This document shows positions 632 through 42,017 of a stretch of DNA of 44,260 nucleotides, in pieces; position 1 is the first letter of the stretch; the number at the start of each line of letters is the position of its first letter. This stretch comes from Patescibacteria group bacterium (GTDB taxonomy: Bacteria > Patescibacteriota > Microgenomatia > Woykebacterales > RBG-16-39-9b): assembly GCA_022574495.1 (NCBI GenBank), contig JACZRW010000003.1:1-44260 (forward strand), read 5' to 3'. The notes beneath the pieces were generated by a model. That model was not told the origin of the DNA. It did no database searches and saw nothing but the letters and a program-made list of their open reading frames with translations. The position numbers were made by a program, and so were the translations under genes.

Positions 632-738
632 AGGTTTAATGTGAGATCAAACGGTAATATTACATTTATCAAAAGTCCAATATAATTTGTTCAGATATTC
701 GAATAAAGTGTTCGAGTTTACTCCCAGGCCGCTCACCA
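632..738. repeat. 107-bp imperfect direct repeat, copy 1 (att-like, ends GTTCGAG...GCTCACCA)
   Basis: Gapless match to 1703-1809, 80/107 identical by manual count. Confidence 0.85.
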
Positions 739-758
739 AATCCTGTATTTCTTGATAC

Positions 759-787
759 AAAAAGAAAAACGACCCATTGCTAGGTCG
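759..787 (-). terminator. Rho-independent terminator candidate for the 914..1567 gene
   Basis: CGACC-cattgcta-GGTCG stem with an adjacent A-tract (U-tract on the minus strand). Confidence 0.5.
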
Positions 788-913
788 CATTTCCTCCTAA
801 GAAAACCTCTTCGAGATTTGCTAAGGAACTGGAGCAGAGCCGAAAGCTTTGAGGCTATCTCAGCAATCAGATGCTCCAAGGTTCTTGCTCTGAGCTATAG
901 AACCAATGGGCCT

Positions 914-1567
914 TTAGGAGATTGGTGTCTCTTTGACAAGCTTAGTCACCCGTTCGAGGACTAGTGAAACGATAGCCAACTCGAAGATGTCTGAATCCTG
1001 GTCGCCGGACATCAACCCCAAAGACTCTGGCGAAACCGTTTCTATCTCTCCTCTGACGATCTGCCATAGTTCGGAGCTTGGGTCTTCCCGAACCTCTCTG
1101 ATGAAGCTTGGGTTGATACCCTCGTGATTTTCCAGCACCCTACGTGCGAGTTTGTCCAGCGTGTTGTACTCTTTTATATCTTTTTCGAAGTCGAGCTCTG
1201 GTGAAAGTTCACCAGTACGAACCAGCCGATAGATCTCGATCAGATCCGTAACTGTTGGTGCTCGAACATCAACTTCTTGCCACGTTGTGTCGCCTCTGTC
1301 TTCGGTCGTTAGCAGGAGCCGTGCTTCACCTTTCACATAAAGAGCATCACGGCGTAAACCACGATAAATCCTACCCTTGTAGGTACCGTGGGTGACGAGA
1401 TCGTCCGGGAGCTCTGGGATTTCGGCCGTTGGGTCGAATGGGTCTCCGTAGAACTCAAAATAAGCTTTACCCGTCCGCTTGTCTGGCCATAATTCCTTGA
1501 CCCCAGCTTCCCGAACCCTCTCCTTAAACTTCGGATCCTCAGAATTTCCATCTAGCCAAATACGCAC
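914..1567 (-). CDS. Hypothetical protein (217 aa, GC-rich)
   Basis: ORF with GTG start, strong SD GAAGGAGG and its own promoter. No family recognised. Confidence 0.8.
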   Translation of the reverse strand: MRIWLDGNSEDPKFKERVREAGVKELWPDKRTGKAYFEFYGDPFDPTAEIPELPDDLVTHGTYKGRIYRGLRRDALYVKGEARLLLTTEDRGDTTWQEVDVRAPTVTDLIEIYRLVRTGELSPELDFEKDIKEYNTLDKLARRVLENHEGINPSFIREVREDPSSELWQIVRGEIETVSPESLGLMSGDQDSDIFELAIVSLVLERVTKLVKETPIS

Positions 1568-1641
1568 ATCTTCCTCCTTCGGCTATTGAGTCACGTGGCT
1601 GGTTATTCTCCAACCATCAGCCCAAAATTGCCGTGTGCATA

Positions 1642-1670
1642 ACTATACAATACTATAGGTTTAAAGTCAA
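1642..1670 (-). promoter_or_regulatory. Sigma70-type promoter
   Basis: Minus strand TTGACT-17 nt-TATAGT upstream of 914..1567. Confidence 0.6.
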
Positions 1671-1702
1671 GTTTGATGGTACTATTTTTGAGGCTAAGTT
1701 AT

Positions 1703-1809
1703 AGGTTCAGGGTGAGTTCAAACGGAAATGTTGTATCTCCCAAAAGTAAAATAAAGTTTATTGAAATATTCAAATAAAGTGTTCGAGTTTTGGGACAGCG
1801 GGCTCACCA
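1703..1809. repeat. 107-bp imperfect direct repeat, copy 2
   Basis: See 632-738. Confidence 0.85.
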
Positions 1810-1976
1810 TACGTCTTCTTTAGATAATAAGCTAGTTGTAAGGTTAGCTTTTTGTTTATAATAGTAACAATTAACAGTACTAAGTACGTGAAGTAGTGGA
1901 AGACCTGTTTTTTATTAGACTCAGCTTGACTTTTCAAAGGTAAAGAAGGTAACTATTAGTTTGAGAAAATTAATGT

Positions 1977-2939
1977 ATGCTAGAAGGTAAAAAATGGTTG
2001 TCAGAAATTAGGAAATTAAGATTGGTTCCATTTATGATGATTTTAATAATAGCATTTGGTTTTTTGTTGGCAGTTTTGGTTTTAATACTGTTATTCGCGT
2101 TTACTCCAGCCGATAGACAGGTATTATTATCCAGACCGAAAAACCTGACTTTTGATGGGTTAGAGAGAACTTACCGAATACATGATCCTAAAACTAGTGG
2201 AAAGAAATCATTAATTATTGGGCTTCATGCTCTAGGAGGAAGTGGTAGACGTTTTTCCTACTTCACTGGACTTCATAATGTCGTGGGCGAAAATACAATC
2301 GTAGTCTATCCTGACGCCGTTTTATCAAATAAGAAGGGTTTAAAAGCAGGTTGGAACTCAACATATTGCTGCGGAACTGGACTTGAGAATAATATTGATG
2401 ATGCGGGGTTCATTTTGGCTCTTATAGAGAGGATTACTCAGGATTATGATATAGACCAGTCAAAAATTTTTATCACCGGATTTTCTAATGGTGCCACAAT
2501 GTCTCAATATCTAGCGACTGAGTATCCGAAAAAATTTGCTGGAATAGCTGCTATATCTGGATCAGTAGGCGTCGAAAAAAAGGTATTAAAACCTTCGAGC
2601 GCAGTTCCAATACTGCTCGCTCACGGCATGAGAGATGAGAGTATTCCATTCAAGGGTGGCCTCTCTGGTGATGATGGCTTCTTTAATTGGTTAGATTTCA
2701 CTACCACCGTAAATACTTGGAGAGATGTAAACGGTTGTAACCAAGAAACTAAGATCATAGAAAAATCTAAAACTCGTGAGATTATCGACTACGAGGGCTG
2801 TGATTCATTAGTTCGTAGCGTTATTTATCCAAACTTAGGCCATCAATGGGACGACTGGCGCGTTGGCCAGTTTTGGCGTAGAACACCAAGAGGTTCGAAA
2901 TTAGTAGTCTCGTTTTTCGAAAACGTTTCTAATAATTAG
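1977..2939 (+). CDS. Membrane-anchored PHB-depolymerase/LpqC-like alpha/beta hydrolase (true start may be about 2034)
   Basis: N-terminal TM segment, oxyanion LHALGG, WN..YCCG, IDD.GFI, nucleophile GFSNG, HG..D..IP, GHQW. Confidence 0.85.
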   Translation: MLEGKKWLSEIRKLRLVPFMMILIIAFGFLLAVLVLILLFAFTPADRQVLLSRPKNLTFDGLERTYRIHDPKTSGKKSLIIGLHALGGSGRRFSYFTGLHNVVGENTIVVYPDAVLSNKKGLKAGWNSTYCCGTGLENNIDDAGFILALIERITQDYDIDQSKIFITGFSNGATMSQYLATEYPKKFAGIAAISGSVGVEKKVLKPSSAVPILLAHGMRDESIPFKGGLSGDDGFFNWLDFTTTVNTWRDVNGCNQETKIIEKSKTREIIDYEGCDSLVRSVIYPNLGHQWDDWRVGQFWRRTPRGSKLVVSFFENVSNN

Positions 2940-3050
2940 GTGGGTAAATTATTCCTGCTTGAGTAACTTTTACTTGTTTACAAATATCTTTGAATCGATG
3001 AACCACTACTTGGTCTTATTAGGAATTAGAAAATCTTACTTAGTTTGAAC

Positions 3051-3257
3051 TTAAGTATCTTGGCTGCGTTCTTGATCGAATAGATTATTTATTCTACGAG
3101 CGATAGATTTTTCATCCGGAAAATCTGCCGGAGTAATAATCCTCCAGGTCTCATCATTCCCAATGTCAAAATTGTATCGAAGCTCATTCTCCCTGGCCCC
3201 TTCAATATCTATCCCTATATTTGGTTTTACATACTCTCTAATTTTTTTAAAATCCAT
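3051..3257 (-). CDS. Small hypothetical protein
   Basis: ATG start with SD AAGGAG upstream, 68 aa. Confidence 0.5.
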   Translation of the reverse strand: MDFKKIREYVKPNIGIDIEGARENELRYNFDIGNDETWRIITPADFPDEKSIARRINNLFDQERSQDT

Positions 3258-3297
3258 CTTTGACTCCTTATTTATTAGTATATACTTTAATCTTAGT

Positions 3298-3480
3298 TTA
3301 GTCTCTTACATCTGTTCCCGGAGGGTAACAATGCTGAGGTCCATTTGGGAATTTAGATTTATCAAGTAATCCTTTGAATGGAAAGTGTCCATCCTCTTTG
3401 GTACTATTCCAACCATCCAATAAATGTTTTGATGAGCTATATTTATCCCACCAAGAAAGAAATTCTTTGTTTATATAATC
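3298..3480 (-). pseudogene. Possible 3' gene remnant
   Basis: About 60-codon stop-free frame DYINKEFLSWWDKY...QHCYPPGTDVRD* preceded directly by TAG, with no start codon at its 5' end. Confidence 0.3.
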
Positions 3481-3574
3481 CTAGTATTATTTAATTATAT
3501 AACTTTTTTAGGCCTGATTTAACCTAGGAAACGGAATTTTGACTTTTAAACTTAAAAAATAGATAATTATAATA

Positions 3575-4102
3575 ATGTCTGCTCAATCAAGGGTTAATCA
3601 GTATCCCCCACAACCTCAACAACAAGTAGGACAACCTCGAAATCCAGTTTCTCCACCAAGTCAAGTTACGGGAGGTAAAAAAAATGGGTCTCCTATCTTT
3701 TCAATAGTAGGTGTTGTGGTGGTGACAATTGTTTTATTTTTTGGTGGGTTATTTTATCTTCAATACTTACAAAACCAAAACATCGAGGATAGTGGGAAAA
3801 TGGAAGAGGAAAATAAGGAAAAAGAGGAACTCCAGCTTAAGCAATTAGAGGAAAATGTAAAGAATGATCAGATAAGGAAGTTGGATATAACTTCAATAAA
3901 GGGTGGGCTCTCAGAATACTTTGAGAAAAATAAATTGTACCCAGAAAAATTAGAGGTTTTAACACCGGATTATTTGACCGTAATACCCTTAGATCCAGTA
4001 TCAAAAGTGCCCTACTTTTACGAACCAAACGAAGATTTTACAAAATATGAGCTCTCCGCCAAATTAAGCGACGATGGTAATTTCACTGTACAAAGTAACT
4101 AA
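3575..4102 (+). CDS. Membrane-anchored pilin/GspG-like protein
   Basis: TM helix followed by D..RK.DI..I...L..YF.....YP..L..L...YL..IP.DP....Y.Y, typical of pseudopilin globular domains. Confidence 0.65.
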   Translation: MSAQSRVNQYPPQPQQQVGQPRNPVSPPSQVTGGKKNGSPIFSIVGVVVVTIVLFFGGLFYLQYLQNQNIEDSGKMEEENKEKEELQLKQLEENVKNDQIRKLDITSIKGGLSEYFEKNKLYPEKLEVLTPDYLTVIPLDPVSKVPYFYEPNEDFTKYELSAKLSDDGNFTVQSN

Positions 4103-4555
4103 CTACCCCCAAAGGTTGTACGGTTTATAGGCGAGGCTTACATTCCAATATTTTTTGTCAGTGGTGACTTCTTTTGAAATCCACAGTGGTCTTTGAAATT
4201 CTTCGTTCAATCTTTTTAGCTCTATTTCAGCAATTATTAAACCTTTGTTAGCCCCTTCAAAAACGTCAATTTCCCAAACATTACCGTTCACTTTTATATT
4301 GTATCTAGTTTTTTCAATTTGGTTACTACACCTATAAATCATGCTTTTCGCATCAGCAATAGGAATAGAAATATCGTACTCAATGTTTAGACCCCCTTCT
4401 CTGAATTTTATAGTTAGGTAGCCCTTTTTGTTTTTAATTCTAGCCCGAACAACAGGGTCAGTGGATAAATAGGCTTGAACTATTTTCTGTCCTCTCTTTA
4501 GTCTTGGAAGTCTATCTGGAAAGACCAGATATTTTCTCTCAATTTCCTTCTTCAT
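4103..4555 (-). CDS. CYTH-domain protein (triphosphate tunnel metalloenzyme)
   Basis: EIERKY, VRARI, LTIK, IEKTRY, WEIDVF and AEIE motifs. Confidence 0.92.
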   Translation of the reverse strand: MKKEIERKYLVFPDRLPRLKRGQKIVQAYLSTDPVVRARIKNKKGYLTIKFREGGLNIEYDISIPIADAKSMIYRCSNQIEKTRYNIKVNGNVWEIDVFEGANKGLIIAEIELKRLNEEFQRPLWISKEVTTDKKYWNVSLAYKPYNLWG

Positions 4556-4556
4556 T

Positions 4557-6845
4557 TTATTTTTTGCGGGAGACTACCACTCTTTTTTCCGCCTCGTAGA
4601 CAGTATTTCTTGTACTTTCAATCATATCTGGAGTGACTGAAATAGAATCTATACCCCATTCTATAACCTTATCAACTAATTGAGGGGACAGAACTGTATT
4701 TTGACCTACTAAAGTGGAGTACACTCTTTTCCTTCTTGCTTCTTTTATTACTCTCTCCAAAGCCCAAAGCACACTTTTATCTAAATCAGAGAAATATTTA
4801 AAAATTTTCTCATTTCCTCTATCTGCACCTAGCAAAAGGGAAGTTAAATCAGCAAGATCTATTGAGATCCCATCTATACCAATATCCAAAAATTTATCTA
4901 TTAGAAACACTGTTGAAGGTACTTCAACCGAAAGAATTAGCTTAAACGTGGACGATCGATGTAAACCAGATGCGGCTACCATTCTTTTTATATTTGCCAT
5001 TTCCTCTAGGGTTCTTACGTAAGGAATAAGAAGCCAAAGGTTCTTAAGATTTAGCTTATTTCGAACATATTTGATAGCTTCTAGCTCAAGACTAAAAATT
5101 TCTGGTTCGGATATATACCTTATAGCCCCTCTAAACCCGAGAAGTGGGTTTTCCTCTTCGATCTCATATTGACTTCCATTCTTAAAGTTTTTGTATTCAT
5201 TACTGGTATAGTCCGACACTCTATACACTACTGGTCTTGGATCAAATGAGGCACAAGATATCTTCAAACCTTCGATTATTTTTTTAATGTACAAATCCTT
5301 TTTATTCTTCTCTATTAGTTTTTTTGGGTGAATACCTATTTCCGAAATTAAAAATTCGGCTCGAAGAAGCCCAACGCCATCCACATTTTTCTGTGAAATC
5401 TCGTAGGCTAAGGTAGAATCCACCAGATTCACAAATATTTTCGTAGCGGTTTTTTTATCGGCTGGCTCTTTCTTATTTGAGGCACTTTTATCCTCAAAAC
5501 TAGCTACCAATCTACTAATTCGTTTATATGGTAATCCTCCTTTATAAACTATACCGGTAGATCCATTGACCGTAACTACGGTATCCGGCTTTATCATATT
5601 GGTTGCTATAGATGTACCGACAACACAAGGTAAACCCATTTCGCGGGCTATGATTGCGGCGTGTGAGGTCTCACCGCCTTTATCAGTTATAACTGCAGCC
5701 GCCTTTTTTAAGGCTGCGATAAAGTTGTGATTATTTACAGGAAGTACTAAAATGTCGCCCCTTTTCACTCTTGCGACTTGTTTTGAAGACTTAATAATTT
5801 TTGCCACTCCTTGAGCGATTCCAGGAGAAGTAGGGGTTCCCTTTACTAAAACAGGTAGATTAATCTCGGTTTTTTCGAATTTTTCATCTGGTTCACTTTC
5901 TGCTGAAGTAACCGGACGAGACTGTAAGATGTATAATTTATTATTCTCGATAGCCCATTCGATATCCTGTGGGAAAAGATAGGTATTTTCTATCTTCCTC
6001 CCTATTTTGGCCAGTTCAATAATTTTTTCATCTGATACCTTCTGAATATTTTGATAGGCGGCGGATACAGGTATTTCCTTATTCTGTTCCTTTGCTAATA
6101 TTAGTTGCGTAGTTTGAGTACTTATTTTTTTATTTATAATAGTAAAACTGCTTTTGGCCACTTCGTAATGATCTGGAGTAACCACGCCCTCAACAATTAA
6201 ATTACCCAGCCCCCAAACAGACTCTATTACAAGTCTGTCCTTATTATTTGTCATTGGATCTACGGTAAGCATGACTCCAGAAACTTCGGATTGAACCATC
6301 TCTTGTATTATTACGGCGACTCCAATTTTTGATTTTCCTAACCCACTTTCTTTGAGATATAAAAGTGCTCTTGGATTATAAAGCGAGGCCCAACATTTTT
6401 TTATTGATGATAGTATGTTGTCAAGATTATTTAGATTTAGGAAGGTGTCCAATTGGCCAGCAAAGGATTTTACCGATAAATCCTCGACTGTTGCAGATGA
6501 ACGAACGGCGACATATCCCTTTGAATTCGATAGTTTTTTGTATTCATTTCTTACCTCGGATATGATTTCTTCCGGTAGCGGAGAAGATTTTATTACATCT
6601 TTAATATGCTCTGAGATTTCATCAACCAGCTCTTGGTTATTATAATCAAGCTTCCCAAGTATTTCTTCTACTCTTACACCAAGTTTATTTTTCTCTAGAA
6701 ATTCAAAATATGCCTTTGAAGTTACAACAAACCCATCAGGAACTGGAGACCCAATCCTTCTTATCTCACCAAGATTTGCACCTTTACCACCCACTATATC
6801 TACATCTTCCTTATCTATTTGAGAAAACCAAACAATATATTTCAT
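4557..6845 (-). CDS. ppsA: PEP synthase (pyruvate,water dikinase)-family protein with a degenerate C-terminal site
   Basis: GGKGANLGE, AVRSSAT.ED...SFAGQ, QDIEWA, phospho-His TSHAAI, GLLRAEF, EENPLLGFRG. Confidence 0.8.
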   Translation of the reverse strand: MKYIVWFSQIDKEDVDIVGGKGANLGEIRRIGSPVPDGFVVTSKAYFEFLEKNKLGVRVEEILGKLDYNNQELVDEISEHIKDVIKSSPLPEEIISEVRNEYKKLSNSKGYVAVRSSATVEDLSVKSFAGQLDTFLNLNNLDNILSSIKKCWASLYNPRALLYLKESGLGKSKIGVAVIIQEMVQSEVSGVMLTVDPMTNNKDRLVIESVWGLGNLIVEGVVTPDHYEVAKSSFTIINKKISTQTTQLILAKEQNKEIPVSAAYQNIQKVSDEKIIELAKIGRKIENTYLFPQDIEWAIENNKLYILQSRPVTSAESEPDEKFEKTEINLPVLVKGTPTSPGIAQGVAKIIKSSKQVARVKRGDILVLPVNNHNFIAALKKAAAVITDKGGETSHAAIIAREMGLPCVVGTSIATNMIKPDTVVTVNGSTGIVYKGGLPYKRISRLVASFEDKSASNKKEPADKKTATKIFVNLVDSTLAYEISQKNVDGVGLLRAEFLISEIGIHPKKLIEKNKKDLYIKKIIEGLKISCASFDPRPVVYRVSDYTSNEYKNFKNGSQYEIEEENPLLGFRGAIRYISEPEIFSLELEAIKYVRNKLNLKNLWLLIPYVRTLEEMANIKRMVAASGLHRSSTFKLILSVEVPSTVFLIDKFLDIGIDGISIDLADLTSLLLGADRGNEKIFKYFSDLDKSVLWALERVIKEARRKRVYSTLVGQNTVLSPQLVDKVIEWGIDSISVTPDMIESTRNTVYEAEKRVVVSRKK

Positions 6846-6874
6846 GGTAGAATTTTCTACTAAAAATTCTACCA
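6845..6874. promoter_or_regulatory. 12-bp perfect inverted repeat at the ppsA start
   Basis: TGGTAGAATTTT-ctacta-AAAATTCTACCA. Confidence 0.6.
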
Positions 6875-6903
6875 GTAGGGGCAGCTAAAGACAATGAGTG
6901 GTT

Positions 6904-8572: not shown

Positions 8573-10570
8573 ATGAATATCGATAATGTTCTGTATTGGA
8601 TTATTGGGTCAGGATTAATTGCTTTGGTATACTCGGCAATCCTAACCATTACAGTCCTAAATAAGGAAAAAGGAAGTGCTAAAATGAGAGAGATTGCAAC
8701 GGCAATTCAAGAAGGTGCCTCTTCCTATCTTTCTCGACAATACTTTGTTGTTTCTATTGTAGGTATTGTAATTTTTGCTCTAATTTGGTTTGGGCTGGGC
8801 CAACCGGTAACTGCTTCGGGATTTGCGCTTGGTGCCCTAGCCTCTGGTTTAGCTGGCTATATTGGCATGAGTGTAGCCGTAAGAACCAACGTTCGCACGG
8901 CAGAAGCGGCAAAAAGTGGTTTATCTGATGCACTCAACGTTGCCTTTCGAGGTGGGGCGGTAACTGGTTTAATCGTGGTTGGACTGGCTCTAATCTCCGT
9001 TGCTGGTTTTTATTTAATTACCAATGATATAAAAGCGCTAATTGGTCTTGGATTTGGCGGTAGTCTAATCTCGGTATTTGCCAGACTTGGCGGTGGAATA
9101 TACACAAAAGGGGCGGACGTGGGTGCAGATTTAGTAGGAAAAGTTGAGATTGGGATACCGGAAGATGATCCCAGGAACCCAGCGGTTATAGCCGATAATG
9201 TGGGTGATAATGTTGGCGATGTTGCTGGAATGGCCGCCGACCTTTTTGAAACTTATGCAGTAACGGCAATAGGGGCCATGATTCTAGGCAGTTTACTCTT
9301 TCCAAATAATGAAAATGCAATAATTTTTCCCTTAGTGCTTGGTGCAATATCAATAATCGCATCAATTATTGGTACATTTTTTGTTCGTATGATCGGAAAA
9401 AGTGTAATGAGTGCTCTTTATTTAGGGTTGATTGCCTCTGGATTATTGTCGGCAATTGGTTTCTACTTTGCTACTTTAGAATTTCCGGTTATCCAAGAGG
9501 TGGGGGAAAGTCTCTCGCTATTTTATGCATCGCTTATTGGACTAGTGGTTACGCTAGGAATGGTTTTAATTACCGAGTTTTACACCTCGAAGAAATTTAA
9601 CTCAGTCAAAACTATAGCCAAAGCAAGTGAAACAGGGCACGCTACCAATATAATTTCCGGACTAGCTGTATCCATGAAATCGACCACTCTACCCATAATT
9701 TTAATTTCCGCGGCTATAATTACTGCTTTTAATCTGGCGGGCTTATATGGAATAGCAATTGCGGCAATGAGTATGCTTTCTATGACCGGTATTATTGTGG
9801 CTATAGACGCATTTGGACCTATAACCGATAATGCCGGCGGAATCGCACAGATGAGCGGACTTTCAGAAAAAGTTCGTGAAGTTACTGACGAACTAGATTC
9901 GGTTGGCAATACGACAAAGGCCGTTACCAAAGGCTACGCAATAGCGAGTGCGGGATTAGCTGCATTAGTACTTTTTGCGGTCTATTCTCAGGAATTGCAG
10001 GCTGTTGGTATAAACGCATCCTTTAGATTAGATAACCCCAACGTAATAATTGGATTGTTTATTGGAGCCGCCGTACCTTACCTATTTGCTGCACTAGCGA
10101 TGGAAGCAGTTGGAAAAGCAGCCGCCAGTGTAGTAACCGAAGTTCGCCGCCAATTTAAGGAGATAAAAGGAATCATGGACGGCAGCGCTAAACCGGATTA
10201 TGCTAGAGCTGTATCTATAGTTACCGCCTCAGCTCAAAGGGGGATGATAATTCCCGCCCTGATACCAGTAGTTTCACCTATTATAGTTGGTTTGTGGCTT
10301 GGACCAGAGGCTCTGGGAGGGTTTTTGGTGGGATCTATAGTGACAGGGTTATTTTTGGCCATATCCATGACTACCGGCGGAGCAGCGTGGGATAATGCCA
10401 AGAAATATATCGAAGAAGGGAATTTAGGCGGAAAGGGATCCGCTGCTCACAAAGCCGCCATTACTGGAGATACGGTTGGAGATCCGTATAAGGATACAGC
10501 AGGGCCTGCGATAAACCCTATGATAAAAGTGATTAATATAGTGGCACTTCTACTTGTACCCTTTTTGTGA
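8573..10570 (+). CDS. hppA: Membrane H+-translocating pyrophosphatase, K+-independent type
   Basis: [51 protein letters not shown] carries the Lys determinant of the K+-independent type. Confidence 0.95.
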
Positions 10571-10690: not shown

Positions 10691-10695
10691 AACAA

Positions 10696-12875: not shown

Positions 12876-12965
12876 AATTATTCACCACCTTTCTCATATT
12901 GGGTATTATATCAATTGAAGGCAAGTAGGTAATAAAAAAGTAGACTTAGTCTGATATACTGTTTG

Positions 12966-13258
12966 TGAGCTGGAGGGAGTAGGTTAAGGAAACGCTCAAA
13001 GAGCGGAATCCAAGTGTCTGGGCACCCTGACGCCACCAGAGTAAGGTTGTCAGGATCCTACCTCCTCCCGCTTTCATAACGGAGAGAGAAGTTGCAGAAC
13101 GAGATACCACTCCCTTTTCTCGTTAGTCGGTATACCCGTACCGCACTGCAACCTCACTCTACGGGCTTGGTGTACACCTTGAGCGTCTGTGTACTTCAGG
13201 TTCCGTTGGGCCCAGTGTGTGAGTGAGTGGCTACAACCCCTCGCACGCACTGGGTTCT
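12966..13258 (+). ncRNA. Candidate structured ncRNA of about 290 nt, unassigned
   Basis: GC-rich with no ORF in the track. TATACT at 12955-12960. Four stem domains and two loop-loop complementarities. Confidence 0.65.
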
Positions 13259-13332
13259 AATCTCTTTCCTAAATATTTAAAATCAGCGGGCTAAGAGGTT
13301 TGATGTTGTCTTTTCTGACAATATAGCTTCAG

Positions 13333-13371
13333 TGGTGAACCAGGATGACCTCGGCCACTTCAATCGCTATA
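13333..13371. repeat. att-like motif, variant class (TGGTGAA...TTCAATCGCTATA)
   Basis: Colinear match to 41979-42017. Confidence 0.7.
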
Positions 13372-13412
13372 ACTTCCTTGACATTATTCGGATTATCGTA
13401 TATTCTGAAAAT

Positions 13413-13670
13413 ATGAAAAGTGTAGTGATTGTGCGCAATCGAGGTCAAATAACAATCCCTGATCCTATTAGAAAAACTGTTGGATGGGTTAACCCCATGT
13501 CGGCAGTTTCAATTAGCGTGGTTAAACCTGATGAAATCGTTTTGAGACCTCATCAGAATAAGTTGGATTGGGATCAGATTTGGAAAAATATTAATGCTTC
13601 CAGAGCAATATCCGGAAAGGGAGATGAAAGTGGCTATGATTTTCTAAAAAAAGATCGTAGATCTCATTAA
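13413..13670 (+). CDS. AbrB/MazE/SpoVT-family antitoxin (VapB-like)
   Basis: RNRGQITIP..IRK motif. TTGACA(13378)-17-TATTCT promoter implies a leaderless ATG at 13413. Confidence 0.85.
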   Translation: MKSVVIVRNRGQITIPDPIRKTVGWVNPMSAVSISVVKPDEIVLRPHQNKLDWDQIWKNINASRAISGKGDESGYDFLKKDRRSH

Positions 13671-13673
13671 CCA

Positions 13674-14093
13674 ATGGACACCTTAGTTGTCGATTCTTCA
13701 GTAATTACAAAGTGGCTGAACAAGAATAATGAGAAAAACATAGATAAAGCGGATTTAATTCTCGAAGATACTCATAAAGGTAAGGTAGAATTAATCGCTC
13801 CCGAATTGGCAAAGTACGAGGTTGGAAATGTACTTCTTACTGGCAAGAAATTAGTTCCTAAAGAAGCAAACATTTCTCTTGGTACCATCTATTCCCTTCC
13901 AATTACTTTTGTTGGTGAGACTGAAGATTTGGCAAAACAAACCTTTAACCTTGCCTTTAAGCACAAGGTTACCTACTATGATGCTTCTTTTATGTCTCTA
14001 GCCAAGCAATATAAGGCGACTTTGATTACAGATAATATTAAACATCAAGGTAAGTCTTTTGAAGTTAAGACCGTTTCTTTACAAAACTACTAA
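13674..14093 (+). CDS. vapC: PIN-domain VapC-family toxin
   Basis: VVDSSV..KW, YEVGN, TYYDA.F..LA, LITD motifs, directly after the AbrB gene. Confidence 0.88.
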   Translation: MDTLVVDSSVITKWLNKNNEKNIDKADLILEDTHKGKVELIAPELAKYEVGNVLLTGKKLVPKEANISLGTIYSLPITFVGETEDLAKQTFNLAFKHKVTYYDASFMSLAKQYKATLITDNIKHQGKSFEVKTVSLQNY

Positions 14094-14237
14094 TTCTTTA
14101 ATCTACTTTCAGCTTCAACAGAATATTGACCCAAAGAAAAGACCACTAAAAATAACTGACCTAACAAGAAAATATAGCTCTATTGTTGATGTAATCTGGA
14201 GATTATAAGCACTCCGATTGCATAGGGGTGCCCTAGC

Positions 14238-14266
14238 TGGTGAGCCAACGCTTACGTTATTCGAAC
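14238..14266. repeat. att-like motif TGGTGA-N16-TTCGAAC
   Basis: TGGTGAGCCA is identical to the tRNA-Lys 3' end at 17735-17744, and the register matches the other copies. Confidence 0.65.
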
Positions 14267-14337
14267 AAATTCGTATCTAATTTCTATTCTTCCGTTAGTA
14301 AAATTCAGTATCCAGAGGTAATATATAAAGAGGTGAA

Positions 14338-14937
14338 CTATTTAACTTCCTTCATAAGGTCTTGATCTACTTTATCAAATACCTCATCTGAGCTCATTTT
14401 AGATACATTTAATACAACATCAGCAAACTTTTTTGTAGGTTCAACATACTTGATGTGCATCGGAGTAAGAACTTCTTTATCGTAAACTGGGTCTACGAAC
14501 TTGTCTCGTCTCTCTTGGCTAGTTTTTTGATCTATGTCTAAGTAATATTTTCTACTGTATAAATCTCTGAGATCCTTGTGCCACAAAGACAAGTATCCCT
14601 CTATTATGAGGACTTCCTTGGGATGAATAGTGCGAGGAATCATATTTTTGTGTTCAAAGTAATCAGGATTTGAGCGATCACTCCAAGTTCTAATTGTAAC
14701 GGGTTTTCCGCTGCGTAGAATCTCAATATCTTTCAGTAGTTTCTCCCAACGGATAACATCAGGATGGTCCCAATTAATCATACCTTTTAAGGTAGGAAGC
14801 TTATTTCTACCATCATCCTCTAGTTGATAGTCATCTAAAGTAAGCATCTCCACCTTTTTTGGATATGTGTCTACCAGGCGATATGAAAGTGTAGATTTAC
14901 CAGATCCAGATCCTCCTGCAATGCTAATTATTTTCAT
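14338..14937 (-). CDS. Uridine kinase-family protein
   Basis: [33 protein letters not shown]. Confidence 0.88.
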   Translation of the reverse strand: MKIISIAGGSGSGKSTLSYRLVDTYPKKVEMLTLDDYQLEDDGRNKLPTLKGMINWDHPDVIRWEKLLKDIEILRSGKPVTIRTWSDRSNPDYFEHKNMIPRTIHPKEVLIIEGYLSLWHKDLRDLYSRKYYLDIDQKTSQERRDKFVDPVYDKEVLTPMHIKYVEPTKKFADVVLNVSKMSSDEVFDKVDQDLMKEVK

Positions 14938-14975
14938 GTTTCGTATCTTACATCAAAAATGCTAGAATGCCAGCT

Positions 14976-15626
14976 ATGATTAAAGCTGTGATTTATGATT
15001 TGGATGATCTCATGGTTAATTCATACGAAATTCACGTTCGTGCGACCAATTTATTACTAAAACAGCATGGAGTTGATGCAAGTAATATTCCTAAGGAAGT
15101 AAATAGGCGTTTCGTTGGGATGAGAATTTCAGATATCTTAAAAACTATTATATCTTATATTAATCTTAACGTTGATTTCGAGAGTTTTTATAAGGAAAGG
15201 AATAGAATCTTCCTAGACTTAGTTAAAAAAGAACTTAAACCAATGCCTGGGCTTAATGAATCATTGAGCTACTATAGACAAAGGGAGTTTAAGATTGCTT
15301 TGGCTAGTTCTGGGACAAAAAAATATATTGAAATGGTATTGGACAGGTTTAAAATAAAAGAGTATTTTGACGTTATAATTTCTGGTGATCATGTAAAGCA
15401 TGGGAAACCAAATCCTGAGATTTATAAATTAACCCTAAATAAACTGGGCGTCAAACCTAGTGAGGCAGTAGTTTTAGAAGACGCTGAAGTAGGAATAGAG
15501 TCAGCGAAGGGGGCTGGATGTTATTGCATAGCTGTAGCAAATCCCAACACACCAATACAGGATTTATCCAAAGCTGATAAAGTGATAAATTCCCTAAACG
15601 AAATAAATACCGTAAAGCTACCTTGA
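14976..15626 (+). CDS. HAD-family phosphatase (beta-PGM/CbbY-like); alternative start 14967
   Basis: YDLDDL, LASS, GKPNPEIY, LEDAEVGI. Confidence 0.88.
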   Translation: MIKAVIYDLDDLMVNSYEIHVRATNLLLKQHGVDASNIPKEVNRRFVGMRISDILKTIISYINLNVDFESFYKERNRIFLDLVKKELKPMPGLNESLSYYRQREFKIALASSGTKKYIEMVLDRFKIKEYFDVIISGDHVKHGKPNPEIYKLTLNKLGVKPSEAVVLEDAEVGIESAKGAGCYCIAVANPNTPIQDLSKADKVINSLNEINTVKLP

Positions 15627-15627
15627 T

Positions 15628-15761
15628 GTGCTACCCTAACGACTCTGACTTCAAACACCCTGATTCAGGTTCTGAACGATTGGAAAGAACAAAACTTATT
15701 AGATCCAATCAAACCTAGCAACAATCTTAGTCTTAGTTATCCAAAATTATTAGAATCTTAA
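15628..15761. repeat. 134-nt dispersed repeat unit
   Basis: Colinear with 41077-41210, sharing ACCCTAACGACTCTGACTTC exactly. Confidence 0.9.
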
Positions 15762-16567
15762 ATTGTTTTATAACGATGAATAATTTCTTGAAGCTGTTTA
15801 TGTAATTTTGGCGGAGCGGTACAGAATGGAAAGGTTTCTTTAGATCTTTTAAGATGGTTAGAGTAATCCATTTGATTACCGTTGAAGTAGGTGAATACGC
15901 CGCCTGCTTCCTCTATAATTATTTGCATTCCGACATCATCCCAAATATTTGTGTTTCGATGGATATAACCTCCTAGATTTCCTTTGGCTACCATCATTCC
16001 GTCAAAGACACAGCCACTACTTCTTAGATTTCTTATGTTTAGAACTATATCTGCAAGCAGAGAACATTCATCTCTGGTAAGCTGTGGTTTTTCTTGATGA
16101 CCATCAATACCATATCCAACAAGGGTATGCAGTAATTTAGTTTCTTTAGTTACTTGGAGTCTTTCAGAGTCAAGAAACGCTCCTTTTCCTTTTTCTGCTG
16201 TGTATATTTCGTGAAAATACGGTAGGGAAACGCCACCTGCCAAAGGTTTATCCTTATGAAGTAGGCCTACTATAATTCCAAACAAAGGTACACCGTTTGC
16301 GAAGTTACTAGTCCCATCGATCGGGTCTATTACCCAAGTGTAGTCGGAATTATTATCTATAACTCCCGCTTCTTCATCGATAATATTATGATTAGGGTAG
16401 TCCTTTTTTATTTTAGATATTAGAAGCTTACCGATTGCCAAATCTGTTTCGGTCAACACTTGATTGTTATCTTGTCCTTTAGATACACCTCTTACTCTAC
16501 CAAAACTACCCAGAGCAATCTTAGATACCTCTGTTAAAGATTTTATTAGGAAATCAGAGTATGACAT
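15758..16567 (-). CDS. Inositol monophosphatase-family protein
   Basis: IIDEE, WVIDPIDGTSNF, IWD...IIEEAGG. Confidence 0.92.
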   Translation of the reverse strand: MSYSDFLIKSLTEVSKIALGSFGRVRGVSKGQDNNQVLTETDLAIGKLLISKIKKDYPNHNIIDEEAGVIDNNSDYTWVIDPIDGTSNFANGVPLFGIIVGLLHKDKPLAGGVSLPYFHEIYTAEKGKGAFLDSERLQVTKETKLLHTLVGYGIDGHQEKPQLTRDECSLLADIVLNIRNLRSSGCVFDGMMVAKGNLGGYIHRNTNIWDDVGMQIIIEEAGGVFTYFNGNQMDYSNHLKRSKETFPFCTAPPKLHKQLQEIIHRYKTI

Positions 16568-16616
16568 CTACAGGGATCTTAACAAATGTAGTAGAAGTAA
16601 ATCTAGTCTTTGATCT

Positions 16617-16747
16617 TAGCAAACAACGTAAATTTGGCTTGGAACTCTTTACAGCAGGTTATGAAAGACTATCGTTTTGTTTCTACGCTTCCAGCTTTTG
16701 AGGCTAAACTCCAACCTAAAGCAAATTACCAAAGTTTATTGGAATAG
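16617..16747. repeat. Diverged copy (131 nt) of the 134-nt unit
   Basis: TTGGAAC at the TTCGAAC register and a 3' motif AATTACCAAAGTTTATTGGAA. Confidence 0.6.
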
Positions 16748-16753
16748 ACAGTT

Positions 16754-17671
16754 TTACGGTTTTCTTGCTTGCCAGGTATTGTACATCCCTAATTTTTTAG
16801 GGTTGTAAAAAACTACAGAAGTTATGTGTTTTTGATCAGCTCTATCTCCACCTTCGTTGTAAATTAATCCGTCGTAACCCTTTCGTAACATGAAATCCGT
16901 AAATATGGTAGAAGCATGTTCCGTTTCACTACCTTTTCCACTTTTGTTACGATCCAAAAGTTGTCTCAGTTCAAGAGCATTACCGCTAGCCAACCTACTT
17001 TTTAATAGTCTTAAGTAACTTGAAGTTATATTGTACCAATTAAGAAGCATTCCTTGTTCACTAATAGGTTTTCCCTCAAGCTCAAGTTTTCCAGTAGGAA
17101 ATTGAGATTTAAAGTAGTCTTGATAAAAAGAGAGCCATTCTTGAGCGAAATCGGTTGTCACAGGGGCGTTTATTCTAGGGTTAATCTTGGAACGCATATC
17201 TAGCATTTTCGCTTGAAATGGCAGTAATTCTTGTGTTACAGCTTCAGAATCAGTTCCCCGACTAAGCTCTGAATAAATTTCGGCATTTCTCTTTTCTGGA
17301 GTAGTATAAAAGCCGTTACCAATCGTAAGACTTCGAGTCTGGGTTTCTAAACTCTTACCTGTATAGTCCACAGAGTCGTCAAACTCAAGCTGATCCTGTT
17401 TGGCACCATGGTGTAAAAGTTCAGGAGAGCTTCTAAAATCTTCTTCAGATAAAGTCCTTGGATCTATGGTACCTAAAACAACATCTCCAAATTGTTCTCG
17501 TTCACTAAACTCTATGTCTTTTTTATCAAAAGCTGCATCTGCGGGCTGCCTAAAAAAATCTTTCTCGTTCTTAGCTTCAAGATTTGCTTTTGCTTTGGCA
17601 GCATCAAAATCTATAGCATCTTTTGATAAACCCATGTCTTCTGGCGATGGTTTTTCTGACTCTGGTATCAC
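16754..17671 (-). CDS. Hypothetical protein with ADP-ribosyltransferase-like (ART-PolyVal-like) motifs
   Basis: LHHGA, GNGFYTT...AEIYS, GYDGLIY, VVFYNP. Confidence 0.6.
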   Translation of the reverse strand: MIPESEKPSPEDMGLSKDAIDFDAAKAKANLEAKNEKDFFRQPADAAFDKKDIEFSEREQFGDVVLGTIDPRTLSEEDFRSSPELLHHGAKQDQLEFDDSVDYTGKSLETQTRSLTIGNGFYTTPEKRNAEIYSELSRGTDSEAVTQELLPFQAKMLDMRSKINPRINAPVTTDFAQEWLSFYQDYFKSQFPTGKLELEGKPISEQGMLLNWYNITSSYLRLLKSRLASGNALELRQLLDRNKSGKGSETEHASTIFTDFMLRKGYDGLIYNEGGDRADQKHITSVVFYNPKKLGMYNTWQARKP

Positions 17672-17734
17672 TATTAAATTTTACCATAGAGATGAAAATA
17701 GGATCTATTGACTGTTACAACAGCCTATACTTAT

Positions 17735-17810
17735 TGGTGAGCCAGGAAGGACTCGAACCTTCAACCTATTGCTTAAGAGGCAATTGCTCTGCCGATTGAG
17801 CTACTGGCCC
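17735..17810 (-). tRNA. tRNA-Lys(CTT)
   Basis: 76-nt cloverleaf, anticodon arm ATTGC-CT-CTT-AA-GCAAT, GTTCGAG T-loop, encoded CCA. Confidence 0.96.
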
Positions 17811-17813
17811 ACG

Positions 17814-17889
17814 TGGCGCCCCAGGAGGGATTCGAACCCCCGACCTTGACGTTAGAACCGTCCTGCTCTATCCGCTGAGCTACTGGGGC
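17814..17889 (-). tRNA. tRNA-Arg(TCT)
   Basis: 76-nt cloverleaf, anticodon loop GT-TCT-AA, GTTCGAA T-loop, encoded CCA. Confidence 0.93.
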
Positions 17890-35256: not shown

Positions 35257-35259
35257 AAA

Positions 35260-35332
35260 AAGGTTATTAGGTCGCTAGGATTTTGGGTTGCTAGGTGACA
35301 TACTCCTAAAAACCTAAGTACCCAATAACCTT
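35260..35332. repeat. Octamer-periodic inverted repeat between atpE and atpF
   Basis: AGGTTATT AGGTCGCT AGGATTTT GGGTTGCT ... CCTAAAAA CCTAAGTA CCCAATAA CCTT. Confidence 0.7.
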
Positions 35333-35348
35333 ATAGCCAATTTAGTTT

Positions 35349-35840: not shown

Positions 35841-35842
35841 TC

Positions 35843-36241
35843 ATGGGTTATTCAAAGCAAGATATTAAAATCGCCAAGAAAATTTTTGAAGGTAGTATTA
35901 AAGAAGGAAATATTGAAACATCAAGGTTATTTTCAATTATTTCTACCGTAAAAAAAATGAAACCGAATAAAGCACTGAATATTCTTCAGGCTCTGTTAAA
36001 AGAGGTAGTCAGTTTTTATAAAAAACAAACTTTATTAGTAGAAAGCTCATTACCACTTGAGCAAAGTTATTTAAGTGAGATAAAAAGAATTTTTGAAAGA
36101 AAAATTGGAAGACCTTTAACTATTGTTTTCAAGGAAAACAAAACCCTGATTGGTGGTATAAAAATAAAACTAGATGATAATGTGTGGGATTACTCGGTTA
36201 ATCAATCTCTAGAGGTATTTAAGGAGCGTGCAAATGGTTGA
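35843..36241 (+). CDS. atpH: ATP synthase F1 subunit delta (short)
   Basis: Operon position and LIGGIKIK...VWDYSV. Confidence 0.85.
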
Positions 36242-37727: not shown

Positions 37728-37760
37728 TTAGGTTACAATAATGTATAGCCAAACAAACAT

Positions 37761-39991
<2,231 letters not shown>

Positions 39992-39999
39992 TTAGGATG

Positions 40000-40114
40000 A
40001 ATATCAAATTTCAAAGTTCAAATACTAAAAGAAATCCAAAACCCAAATGCTTAATTTTTTGACATTTAGTCATTTGAGATTGATTTATCATTTTGATTTT
40101 GGAATTAGGATTTT
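40000..40114. repeat. Heptamer-periodic inverted repeat between atpD and atpC
   Basis: AATATCA AATTTCA AAGTTCA AATACTA... followed by the complementary TTTGA/TTTAG series. Confidence 0.65.
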
Positions 40115-40121
40115 ATAAAGT

Positions 40122-40550
40122 ATGGATGGGACATCAAAATTTTTATTGCAATTAGTAACTCCCGAGAAAAAATCGTTCGATGACGTGGTTGATCAGGTCA
40201 CTATTCCTACTATCGAAGGAAATATCACCGTTTTACCAAACCATATGTCTCTGGTTACTTCTATCAAACCAGGCGAGTTAATTGTCAAACAAGGATCCAA
40301 AGAAACCAATATTGCTTCTGGTTTTGGATTCGCCCAAATCACCGGTCAACAAGTTAGTATCCTCACTGACCTCGCCGAAGAAGCTGAAAATATATCAGAA
40401 AAAGAAGCCGAAGAAGCTAGAAGGAGAGCTGAGGACACTCTTAAAGAAAAAGAAAGACTTTCCAGCGAAGAGTATGCTGCTGTTGCCGCCGCTTTGGAAA
40501 AATCCCTCGTTCGACTACGTGTAAAGAGACGTCACCGCCTAAAAGTTTAA
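40122..40550 (+). CDS. atpC: ATP synthase F1 subunit epsilon
   Basis: LVTPEK, G.I.VLPNH, C-terminal helices. Confidence 0.95.
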   Translation: MDGTSKFLLQLVTPEKKSFDDVVDQVTIPTIEGNITVLPNHMSLVTSIKPGELIVKQGSKETNIASGFGFAQITGQQVSILTDLAEEAENISEKEAEEARRRAEDTLKEKERLSSEEYAAVAAALEKSLVRLRVKRRHRLKV

Positions 40551-40564
40551 CTAATCAATATCGA

Positions 40565-40698
40565 TGGTGACCCACGAAGCTTCTTGTTCAGATTCAAAGA
40601 GTTTGTAACTCAGTTTAAGTTATCAGGTCAGTATGAGATTCAGCCCTTGTTAGAAAAATATTCTTACCTATAATTACCTAAGTTTATTAGAAAATTAA
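40565..40698. repeat. 134-nt dispersed repeat unit with degenerate interior
   Basis: Starts TGGTGACCC and ends AATTACCTAAGTTTATTAGAAAATTAA. Same length as the 15628 and 41077 copies. Confidence 0.65.
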
Positions 40699-41036
40699 GT
40701 TGGTTTAACTAAGGTTGAAGGGATGTACAATAAGGCTCCAATTAAGGTGATCATAAATGCTCTTGAATCTCCAGGGTCTGGCGATAGACCAGAGCCAAAT
40801 GACATCAATCCAACTAGTAATAAATAAACAATTGAAAGTACAAGAAGTAGGAATTTTAGCTTTGGCTGGTTTTTTTCTAAAAAGGTCAGGAGAAGGAAGA
40901 TTGCTAAAAATACTGGAAAAAAGACCAATAACATGTTCTTGTCAGCTGCATCGCTTGACAAAAGTCTTAGGTAAACAGGAAATCCAAGTAATCCAATTGT
41001 AAATATTAACCAGCCTATTTTGATGTAGAAACGCAT
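40695..41036 (-). CDS. 4-TM hypothetical membrane protein
   Basis: Four hydrophobic segments, TATAAT just upstream (leaderless). Confidence 0.7.
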   Translation of the reverse strand: MRFYIKIGWLIFTIGLLGFPVYLRLLSSDAADKNMLLVFFPVFLAIFLLLTFLEKNQPKLKFLLLVLSIVYLLLVGLMSFGSGLSPDPGDSRAFMITLIGALLYIPSTLVKPT

Positions 41037-41076
41037 CTGTACAGATTATAATTGTTCTAAATAGAATTAAGCAAGC

Positions 41077-41210
41077 TGGTGACCCTAACGACTCTGACTT
41101 CGAACACCTTGATCCAGCTTCTTAATGATTGGCAGACTCAAAATCTTCTAGAACCAATTGAACCTAAGAATACATTTGGGACTAACTACCTAAGGGGATT
41201 AGAAGATTAA
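41077..41210. repeat. 134-nt dispersed repeat unit
   Basis: See 15628-15761. Confidence 0.9.
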
Positions 41211-41241
41211 TAATGTAAGAAGATTATTTGAAGAAGAAAAC

Positions 41242-41931
41242 CTATTTAAGGTAAGTTAGTGTGGAGAGAATAAGATTCATTATATCTCTATATTCCTTAA
41301 TATTTTCTTTGTCGTAAATAAAGAGAGTGATTCGTTGAGTTCCAGAGGTTAATCTGGGTCCTCCATCTTGCTCGGAAAAATTAGTTATTTGTTTGACTCC
41401 TCCTATATGAGTATCTATATCATAACTTTCCTCAGAATTAATTTCTTGATAGATTCCCTTGTGACCATCCACAACTATTTCCTTTTTATTCAAAATCTGT
41501 CTTGACCCTGCTGCTTTTTTTGCCAAATTTTCTGGAGTATCTTGAGGATTTATGTATGTATGTTCATTGACTGAAATTAGTATCTTATTTTCACTATCTG
41601 CGAAATTAGCAAATCCACCTGTTGATGCTGGAGCACTACTCCATTCAGACGGATATTTAAAAGAAAAATCTTCAGTTGAGTGACTTTTCCAATCAGCTGT
41701 TTCATCTTTTTCTGCTGAAGTAGTAGTGGAAGGTGTTGAGGTAGGTACTTGAGATTTTGGTACTTCTTTTAGGTCTGAATTAAATGATCCTCTCTCGAAA
41801 ATAAAAAACCAGTATACACTTGCAATAATACTAGTTACCACCAGAATAATTAGTATTGTGAGTCCAATTTTTTTCCAGTTGGTTTTCTGTGGAGTTACTT
41901 GAGGTTGTGGTTGAACAGGTACTTCTTCCAT
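41242..41931 (-). CDS. Membrane-anchored PsbP-like surface protein
   Basis: TM segment, S/T linker, TADWK....FSFKYP.EW, VDG..G, ILSTL. Confidence 0.75.
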   Translation of the reverse strand: MEEVPVQPQPQVTPQKTNWKKIGLTILIILVVTSIIASVYWFFIFERGSFNSDLKEVPKSQVPTSTPSTTTSAEKDETADWKSHSTEDFSFKYPSEWSSAPASTGGFANFADSENKILISVNEHTYINPQDTPENLAKKAAGSRQILNKKEIVVDGHKGIYQEINSEESYDIDTHIGGVKQITNFSEQDGGPRLTSGTQRITLFIYDKENIKEYRDIMNLILSTLTYLK

Positions 41932-41978
41932 TTGCTTAATTATCTAACCTAAAGTTTCTTAAGTCAAATGAGACTAGC

Positions 41979-42017
41979 TGGTGAAGCAGTGTGGTCGCGG
42001 TCAGTTCAATCGCTATA
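41979..42017. repeat. att-like motif, variant class
   Basis: Matches 13333-13371. Confidence 0.7.

Follow-up and report, generated by a model that had tools for sequence, protein, structure and literature searches.

Several described systems are close to the locus analyzed in this study. In the published account of a Listeria phage integrase (PMC3783163), a 9-bp motif of the zinc-ribbon domain is placed at positions 16–24 of the attP half-site and the same motif is shifted 5 bp toward the centre in attB, the minimal attB of several large serine recombinases (LSRs) being ~10 bp shorter than attP. For the integrative elements of Prochlorococcus that include the tycheposons, the figures given are that a tyrosine recombinase is used by 910 of 937 elements and an LSR by the others, and that in 474 of 501 tycheposons the integrase belongs to the tRNA-associated tyrosine recombinase clade of Prochlorococcus (10.1101/2020.12.28.424599). 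Here we describe a stretch of 44,260 nucleotides from a Patescibacteria group bacterium of the Woykebacterales (contig JACZRW010000003.1, C58, of assembly GCA_022574495.1; hereafter, the window), in which a family of tRNA-3'-like motifs, each heading a ~135-nt unit that we call the tail, partitions accessory genes into small cassettes. The comparative evidence makes it likely that these motifs are P' arms of LSR attachment (att) sites, left by serial integration at tRNA-Lys and tRNA-Glu genes. The source genome (G000) comprises 935,484 bases in 67 contigs and is 94% complete.

A preliminary description of the window had pointed to a fixed-register motif, TGGTGA-N16-YTCGAAC, said to be 5 nt longer than a real tRNA end, and both statements are borne out. 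The motif is matched four times, at 710–738 and 1781–1809 on the minus strand and at 14238–14266 and 41077–41105 on the plus strand, vs. no match in any of 100 dinucleotide-preserving shuffles, and these four are all the matches in the entire genome. A genome-wide scan of the two halves (TGGTGA and YTCGAAC) at every spacing from n = 4 to n = 30 returned matches at n = 11 (three) and n = 16 (four) only, the former being the true tRNA genes Lys-ttt, Lys-ctt and Glu-ctc and the latter the four window copies. With no other spacing present in the genome, the excess of 5 nt is exact rather than a product of chance. Among the 37 tRNA genes identified by ARAGORN (nearly all of which encode their CCA end), only these three have an antisense strand starting with TGGTGA, and it is these tRNAs whose ends the heads of the tail units copy, with shared prefixes of 9–12 nt and identity over 9–17 nt. 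Thus, 16 of the first 17 nt in the head of the unit at 608–739 are those of the antisense 3' end of tRNA-Lys(ttt), with the T-loop-like heptamer placed 5 nt further out; the unit at 14237–14368 shares its first 10 head nucleotides with the antisense 3' end of tRNA-Lys(ctt); and the head at 41076 has 9 nt in common with tRNA-Glu-ctc.

The same pairing of a heptamer at N11 in the tRNA (the attB half) with a heptamer at N16 in the tail (the P' half) is seen in three independent element/tRNA pairs as well as in the window. By analogy, the additional 5 nt equal the 5 bp by which, in the published sites, the zinc-ribbon-domain motif lies further out in attP than in attB; we infer that the heptamer corresponds to that motif, and the crossover is probably located within TGGTGA, near its middle. 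One such site belongs to an element in a relative, G008, with a P arm GTTGAAA-N16-TGGTGA, a P' arm TGGTGA-N16-TTCGAAC and a target tRNA-Glu with TGGTGA-N11-TTCGAAC, and its reconstructed attP has a dyad of ~52 bp centred in TGGTGA. Only the G008 element shows this left-arm symmetry clearly (on contig C54 the left arm is off by one, and L069 has none), and an exact-seed search for distal tRNA-like repeats in seven further LSR islands gave none but one 8-nt seed. The register also bears on a reading of the copies as tRNA 3' fragments left by tyrosine integrases, or as decayed tRNA pseudogenes. Such enzymes are described as commonly targeting tRNA genes and leaving partial tRNA repeats, and three tyrosine recombinase genes (Phage_integrase matches) are present in this genome, on other contigs. 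This origin is nevertheless very improbable given the fixed, 5-nt longer register in all copies, the sequence past the heptamer, which is not tRNA-like (Rfam finds no tRNA in any copy at E up to 1), and the serine rather than tyrosine recombinases at the tRNA junctions of relatives.

The tail unit has a sharp 5' edge at TGGTGA (read as NTG-GTG-A) and, in the alignment of window copies with those of relatives, a conserved 3' edge near TTAGAA-TCTTAA. A DNA profile of the tail recovers nine genome copies (seven in the window and one each on C1 and C14), all of which belonged to its training set, so that the profile scores show likeness and not discovery. With this reservation, the sites at 15628, 16617 and 40565, earlier called degenerate copies, are homologues (15627–15761, E = 1.6e-22; 16616–16756, E = 2.3e-17; 40564–40698, E = 5.7e-10). 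The proposed variant pair at 13333 and 41979 fared less uniformly, sharing 30 of 39 positions and being missed by the DNA profile. Further tail subfamilies are seen by BLAST, and the 40565 type, a second subfamily, has further copies on contigs C54, C51 and C34 and another four in L018, a 10.3-kb metagenomic relative that holds 11 heads on one strand and no recombinase. The placement of the window copies agrees with the preliminary description as well: nine of nine lie between open reading frames (ORFs) or on ORF edges and none within the uvrABC, lexA or atp operons; orientation is common within each tract, the two left-end copies being on the minus strand and all others on the plus strand.

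Read from NTG-GTG, the unit carries the start-less frame noticed earlier, open for 30–45 codons in most copies, and this frame behaves as a coding one. Across the 11 long copies, variability is lowest at codon position 2 (entropy 0.55 vs. 0.80 and 0.86), 421 of 1589 differing codon pairs are synonymous (vs. 102/1526 and 283/1574 in the other frames), and stops make up 5 of 484 codons (vs. 43/473 and 68/473), distributed over five of these copies. The tail peptides of the copies at 15627 and 41076 are 64–66% identical, and many of their differences are synonymous. An early idea of a transfer-messenger RNA (tmRNA) or tRNA-like RNA gene was dropped on account of this signal and of conserved stops on the opposite strand. 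Rfam returned no family in any tail copy or in any of eight loci at E up to 1 (the two tRNAs being the only passes in the window), and six single-strand folds (three copies, both strands) were not stabler than shuffles (z from −0.04 to +1.63). Taken together, the coding-frame signal, the absence of an Rfam match and the lack of a fold indicate a coding-like unit rather than a structured RNA or hairpin. An attC-like site, terminator or small RNA is thus the least probable of the origins weighed here: its location at gene 3' ends and a rough size like that of integron attC would suit it, whereas the folds, the Rfam results and the coding-type substitutions would not.

The connection of this frame with recombinases comes from relatives of the same family. 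A family-wide search located 17 LSR loci in 11 of 17 genomes, and 11 of the 17 LSR ORFs have their 3' end within a tRNA gene read in antisense (Leu, Glu, Gln, Pro, Asn, Lys and others); as to the remaining six, two are cut by contig ends, one contains Ns, one is a fragment, one is a fragment in the source genome itself and one is the L050 locus. Resolvase, Recombinase and zinc-ribbon domains are all present in L048:7698–9245, L047:3240–4934, L047:10624–12153, L050:8332–9984 and L071:2995–4509. The LSR of L050 (8332–9984; intact, 550 aa, not beside a tRNA) has within its ORF TGGTGA-N16-TTTGAAC followed by a 29-codon tail, and orphan copies of this head and tail are found at L018:1439 and L018:3441. 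In relative G009, a ~3.6-kb element (L047:1219–4797) has at one end (1219–1353) TGGTGG-N16-TTGGAAC with an intact tail of 45 codons, which is of the 16617 subtype. At the other end is an LSR whose reading frame (ATG-GTG, as in the tail) continues into tRNA-Leu(taa), with TGGTGG-N11-CTCGAAC. Also in G009, a 53-codon LSR C-terminal remnant, 66% identical to another LSR, adjoins a tail. Finally, residues 2–62 of a metagenomic protein, P0001, align without gaps to residues 461–521 of the G009 LSR (36% identity, E = 2e-12); beyond the Met-Val of the head, where the alignment stops, P0001 continues as the tail family of this window. For a second protein, P0002, the alignment to an LSR is position-consistent and not significant (E = 0.78), and a search with it for related loci in a set of genome contigs found none.

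As these arrangements are read here, the recombinase ORF spans attP in these elements, so that upon integration its final codons would stay behind at the opposite island end. The L050 recombinase, P0001 and the G009 element thereby sustain the earlier suggestion that the start-less frame resembles the C-terminal tail of a recombinase with an att site inside its own gene, and the motif is indeed found at the 3' end of large recombinase genes, namely the serine recombinase ORFs of relatives. An alternative assignment makes the 43-codon frame a small gene of its own, for example a directionality factor or regulator, that starts with NTG-GTG on the crossover and is expressed only from the excised circle. 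The coding constraint confined to the NTG-GTG frame would be expected of such a gene, gene callers do report stand-alone 44-aa proteins (P0006, P0008, P0011), and several LSR subfamilies cross the head in a different frame, as detailed below. We regard this assignment as unlikely: in P0001 and the G009 element the LSR frame continues into the tail frame, the unit begins at its first codon with no conserved ribosome-binding site or promoter inside it, and neither Pfam nor PHROGs has a family for tail-bearing proteins.

Among the genomes compared, the tail was found in one bacterial family only. A tail peptide query found copies in 9 of 16 other genomes of the family and in 0 of 24 genomes outside it, and the tail profile has a match in 11 of the 16. 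In large protein sets the tail occurs almost only in proteins of 44–131 aa; the longer proteins that match the tail profile by word search number five (90–255 aa), and tblastn of the source genome itself gave no long ORF with a tail. Metagenome matches to P0001 besides L018 amounted to three spurious, high-GC hits antisense to elongation factor G genes, which were discarded.

The geometry of islands in relatives is what integration at tRNA genes would produce. Nine of 11 Glu-type copies lie 1–11.5 kb from a tRNA-Glu on the opposite strand and in the required orientation, the two unlinked ones being in L050 (no tRNA in 17 kb) and in L053 (630 nt from the contig start). Given this opposite-strand linkage, the copy marks the far limit of an island and the tRNA 3' end its near limit. 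In relatives, a tRNA-Glu follows the atp operon within 1–8 kb, and the sixth base of the head tracks the target tRNA, A for Lys and Glu and G for Leu. The G008 island is an example: at tRNA-Glu(ttc), a 515-aa Resolvase/Recombinase/zinc-ribbon protein has an ORF running 58 nt into the tRNA antisense strand, helicase and replication-relaxation (Replic_Relax) genes lie between the tRNA-Glu and the tRNA-like head, and the 19 nt left of a tail head in G008 are those of the tRNA-Glu flank in the same-genus genome G016.

Several further observations concern the surroundings of these tRNA genes. A ~160-nt module located 3' of tRNA-Glu(ctc) in the source genome has a terminator-like hairpin just past the tRNA and an outer end like the sense-strand T-arm of a tRNA; it is repeated directly before heads at C54:7791–7950 and 9639–9751 and at L018:8945–9091 and 9921–10077, and partly at 14204–14243 of the window. 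An exact 16-nt antisense tRNA-Glu 3' end without a tail is present at L048:2685–2700; it precedes the P' head of the LSR element by 134 nt and may remain from an earlier event. With the flank common to L048 and L052 (G008 and G016, same genus) as reference, the whole segment holding tRNA-Glu(ttc) and the tails has opposite orientations in the two. In another relative, G011, a heliorhodopsin gene (L040:5175–5951) is found in the variable region 3' of the atp operon. In the 67-contig assembly of the source genome, ARAGORN found no tmRNA, tRNA-Glu(ttc) or tRNA-Leu(taa).

Within the window, the copies form three same-orientation tracts of units 0.5–1.4 kb long (about 0.5–1.5 kb), each with one or two genes. 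The first (608–1810, minus strand, at the left end of the contig) has two sister tail units, at 608–739 (profile E = 5e-12) and 1675–1810 (E = 1.5e-9), and its cargo (3–1567, minus strand) consists of ORFs 3–503 and 914–1567, for which Pfam has no family. The second (13333–17734) ends at its anchor, tRNA-Lys(ctt) (17735–17810, minus strand), whose attB-type half reads TGGTGA-N11-CTCGAAC on the plus strand; tRNA Arg-tct (17814–17889, minus strand) follows, both tRNAs being called by ARAGORN and Rfam. Outermost in this tract stands the variant head and tail at 13333–13410 (plus strand), which enters the 5' extension of the antitoxin ORF and is followed by a pair of a MazE/AbrB-like antitoxin and a PIN toxin (13413–14093, plus strand). 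The next unit comprises a left arm ahead of the head (14204–14243, plus strand; the partial copy of the hairpin-bearing flank 3' of tRNA-Glu(ctc) on contig C54), a tail (14237–14368, plus strand; E = 0.0011) and, as cargo at 14338–15626, a uridine-kinase-like gene on the minus strand and a HAD hydrolase gene on the plus strand. Two profile-detected plus-strand tails with decayed heads complete the tract, one at 15627–15761, with an inositol monophosphatase family gene as cargo (15758–16567, minus strand) whose stop codon overlaps the TTAA ending the tail, and one at 16610–16747, of one subtype with the intact tail of the G009 LSR element, with a 305-aa ORF of no known family (16754–17671, minus strand). 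The third tract (40564–42067, plus-strand tails) lies directly 3' of atpC and consists of the second-subfamily tail (40564–40698, found by the profile) with a 113-aa membrane protein gene (40695–41036, minus strand), the best-kept unit (41076–41210; a TGGTGA head followed by a 44-codon open frame, E = 7e-30) with a PsbP-like protein gene (41242–41931, minus strand), and a variant tail at 41978–42067 that is 87% identical to L018:9091–9180. Overall, the cargo includes a toxin-antitoxin pair, uridine-kinase-like and HAD genes, inositol monophosphatase, PsbP-like and membrane proteins, and ORFs to which neither Pfam nor PHROGs assigns a family.

Other details of the tracts are noted for completeness. 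Stop codons of several unrelated, convergent cargo genes overlap or abut the TTAA that ends the tail, in the window (15756–15760, 40695–40698) and also at L002:1629–1634, L018:6758–6764 and L038:3770–3777. The region just outside the outermost head of the second tract (12946–13330) holds short overlapping ORFs only, includes a G+C-richer patch and has no Rfam match. A second repeat of ~95 nt, with internal palindromes, one frame reading VVLRLK..DC..YFSPIG and no Rfam match, is located at L016:100–223 (contig C14), L017:1747–1822 (C1), C54:8773–8846, C21:27062–27146 and L018:4148–4220; it adjoins the tail head on C14 and in the metagenomic proteins P0003, P0012 and P0017, and its 5' piece lies ahead of three L018 heads.

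Two window cassettes have counterparts in L018. The cassette at 41077–41978 corresponds to L018:6627–7579, with homology from the first T of TGGTGA to just past the next TGGTGA, and window 16614–17734 corresponds to L018:2325–3440, followed by tRNA-Lys in the window and by another tail in L018; the neighbours of both differ in every case. Breakpoints thus fall within a few nucleotides of TGGTGA in both shared cassettes, as the preliminary description had anticipated for cargo gains and losses. This suggests that the small cassette itself is the moving unit, since erosion to identical limits on two occasions is unlikely. The same breakpoints disfavour a reading of the units as miniature repeats or portable homology blocks spread by transposition or homologous recombination, in the style of minimal mobile elements. 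Several repeat families do co-occur in these genomes, yet homology of the shared cassettes stops at TGGTGA and not within the 135-nt repeat, orientation obeys a strict rule with respect to tRNA genes, the sixth base of the head follows the target tRNA, and the tail units showed neither terminal inverted repeats nor target duplications; we therefore consider such a spread quite improbable.

A weightier alternative is that the tracts are graveyards, i.e., that the cassettes are eroded autonomous LSR elements whose recombinase and backbone were deleted and that nothing moved in trans. Autonomous elements with LSR, helicase and replication-relaxation genes do exist in relatives, the heads at 15628 and 16617 are decayed, in-frame stops affect 5 of 11 long copies, and the tycheposon model, as presented, has degenerated elements piling up beside the tRNA (10.1101/2020.12.28.424599). 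The window and L018 cassettes argue against it: tblastn with the 17 LSRs detected no LSR or backbone fragment in any of them (nor is any recombinase found among the window genes, in line with the earlier observation), and two cassettes with identical head-to-head limits and different neighbours on both sides occur in two genomes, which independent erosion would hardly yield. Pure relics remain a substantial possibility, though one that we place below an even chance. Within the interpretation as LSR att sites, movement of recombinase-less cassettes in trans, by an LSR encoded elsewhere, appears slightly the better choice between the two. As for public reads, 20 runs contain parts of the tract; in four of them, which assembled into short contigs only, contigs broke off at the edges of repeats and neither a clean empty site nor a circle joint was seen.

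The mechanism that we favour may be outlined as follows. LSRs would insert small elements at the 3' terminus of those tRNA genes that begin with TGGTGA in antisense (Lys-ctt, Lys-ttt, Glu). Each unit would start at the crossover, copy 9–17 nt of the tRNA acceptor strand and then present the heptamer 5 bp further out, the offset providing the geometry by which a serine integrase may tell attP from attB. As the recombinase ORF would span attP, the unit would continue as the last ~43 recombinase codons; integration would cut this tail off the recombinase gene and leave it at the far edge of the island, and the integrated recombinase would then read into the antisense strand of the tRNA. Newcomers entering beside the tRNA would push older units outward, resulting in same-orientation tracts of one- or two-gene cassettes. 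A flank-like left arm on a cassette might, hypothetically, regenerate an attB-like site at the tRNA and thereby allow serial capture. The tRNA linkage, the continuity between LSR and tail and the breakpoints at TGGTGA all speak for the earlier proposal of att sites and serial site-specific integration.

A number of points weigh against this interpretation. Its support comes from sequence comparison. The source genome retains a single LSR fragment (C54:12283–13245), at a contig end and beside neither a tRNA nor a tail, and none of the ~20 cassettes of the window and L018 appears to hold LSR remnants. Our searches produced no full-length LSR with the tail family of this window: the tail profile matched 16 of 1.84 billion representative proteins, none of them combining recombinase and tail, and a word search with P0001 among longer proteins had no match. 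Several LSR subfamilies (L055, L062 and the G009 remnant, GGT-GAC) cross the head in another frame, so that the 43-codon frame is the C-terminus of some recombinases only. In most copies from relatives the heptamer is TTAAAC-like rather than TTCGAAC, which weakens a strict reading of it. The duplicated flank-like left arms beside heads are not predicted by the simple model. Finally, recombination between attP and an occupied, attL-type site is not known for canonical serine integrases, yet the tracts imply repeated entry beside the tRNA, for which a relaxed left half-site should be needed.

A more far-reaching version, which we offer tentatively and consider less likely than not, is an LSR-based analogue of the integron in a bacterium of the Candidate Phyla Radiation, where recombinase-less minicassettes (tail, gene, left arm) would be captured in trans, serially, at the CCA end of tRNA-Lys and tRNA-Glu by a tail-switched recombinase. 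The excised form alone would have the conserved 43-aa C-terminal tail, with tRNA-antisense residues taking its place upon integration, and this swap might serve as a switch, built into the enzyme, for its activity, stability or direction. The term integron-like accretion, used in the preliminary description, fits the outcome and not the machinery: there is no IntI in the window and no folded attC, the recombinase involved would be a serine one, and the anchor is a tRNA gene.

If correct, the favoured interpretation would provide a concrete mechanism for gain and shuffling of accessory genes in ultra-small genomes with few classical mobile elements, and serine integrases would join the natural tRNA-targeting, island-building enzymes. 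A heptamer at N11 in the tRNA and at N16 in its mimic would serve as a natural illustration of the 5-bp rule separating attP from attB. The LSRs paired with tRNA-Leu, Glu, Lys, Gln, Pro and Asn are candidates for new orthogonal integrase/att systems, and a tail swap that regulates the enzyme would represent a new mode of recombinase self-control.

Among described systems, the A118-type LI integrase of Listeria phage, as reported, resembles this one in having a recombinase with Resolvase, Recombinase and zinc-ribbon domains at the junction and a motif shared by both sites, with an additional 5 bp between it and the centre in attP (PMC3783163). In contrast to that system, which uses a protein-coding gene, the target here is a tRNA gene 3' end, and the putative P' arm mimics the tRNA acceptor strand and T-loop, with the recombinase ORF crossing attP. 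The tycheposons, in the description available, are likewise small cargo-carrying integrative elements of a streamlined genome, with insertion at tRNA genes, partial tRNA repeats, tRNA-proximal growth and older or degenerate units placed outward (10.1101/2020.12.28.424599); full and partial tRNA flanks and a replication module are also features of the G008 element. Unlike tycheposons, all junction recombinases seen here are LSRs, the att site is inside the recombinase ORF, and dense runs of 0.5–1.5-kb cassettes lack a recombinase, in a different phylum. The "suicidal" archaeal integrases of the Sulfolobus spindle-shaped virus (SSV) type also have att within the integrase ORF, and integration at a tRNA splits their gene and leaves a fragment at each end; as described, they are tyrosine recombinases split into two inactive pseudogenes (PMC7253208), whereas the serine recombinases found here lose the last 29–45 codons only and keep their catalytic and DNA-binding domains.

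With integrons the tracts share same-orientation arrays of one-gene cassettes, no recombinase in cassettes and a recombination element of ~60–140 nt at the gene 3' end, with the cargo stop often adjoining it; they differ in the lack of an IntI tyrosine recombinase or attI in the window, in the tRNA gene as anchor and in a tail unit that, unlike attC, is conserved in sequence, coding-like and unfolded. Cis-mobilizable elements (CIMEs) related to streptococcal integrative and conjugative elements are flanked by att sites, lack recombination genes and can be moved by the integrase of an incoming element; the window cassettes are structurally alike (bounded by putative att sites, without a recombinase), and CIME systems use tyrosine integrases. 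In the integration-dependent immunity of mycobacteriophages, a gene spans attP and integration at a tRNA alters its C-terminus, the integrase being of the tyrosine type and the cut gene being the repressor, whereas here it is the integrase itself; likewise, tRNA-overlapping attB sites of mycobacterial prophages, where described, belong to tyrosine integrases. A search of the literature on LSRs with tRNA targets or in Patescibacteria found no LSR ORF spanning a tRNA-mimicking attP, which is weak evidence of absence. Overall, the kind of system is a known one, and what is new here is the combination of a serine recombinase, a tRNA-mimicking attP spanned by the ORF of that recombinase, and cassettes without a recombinase packed into dense tracts.

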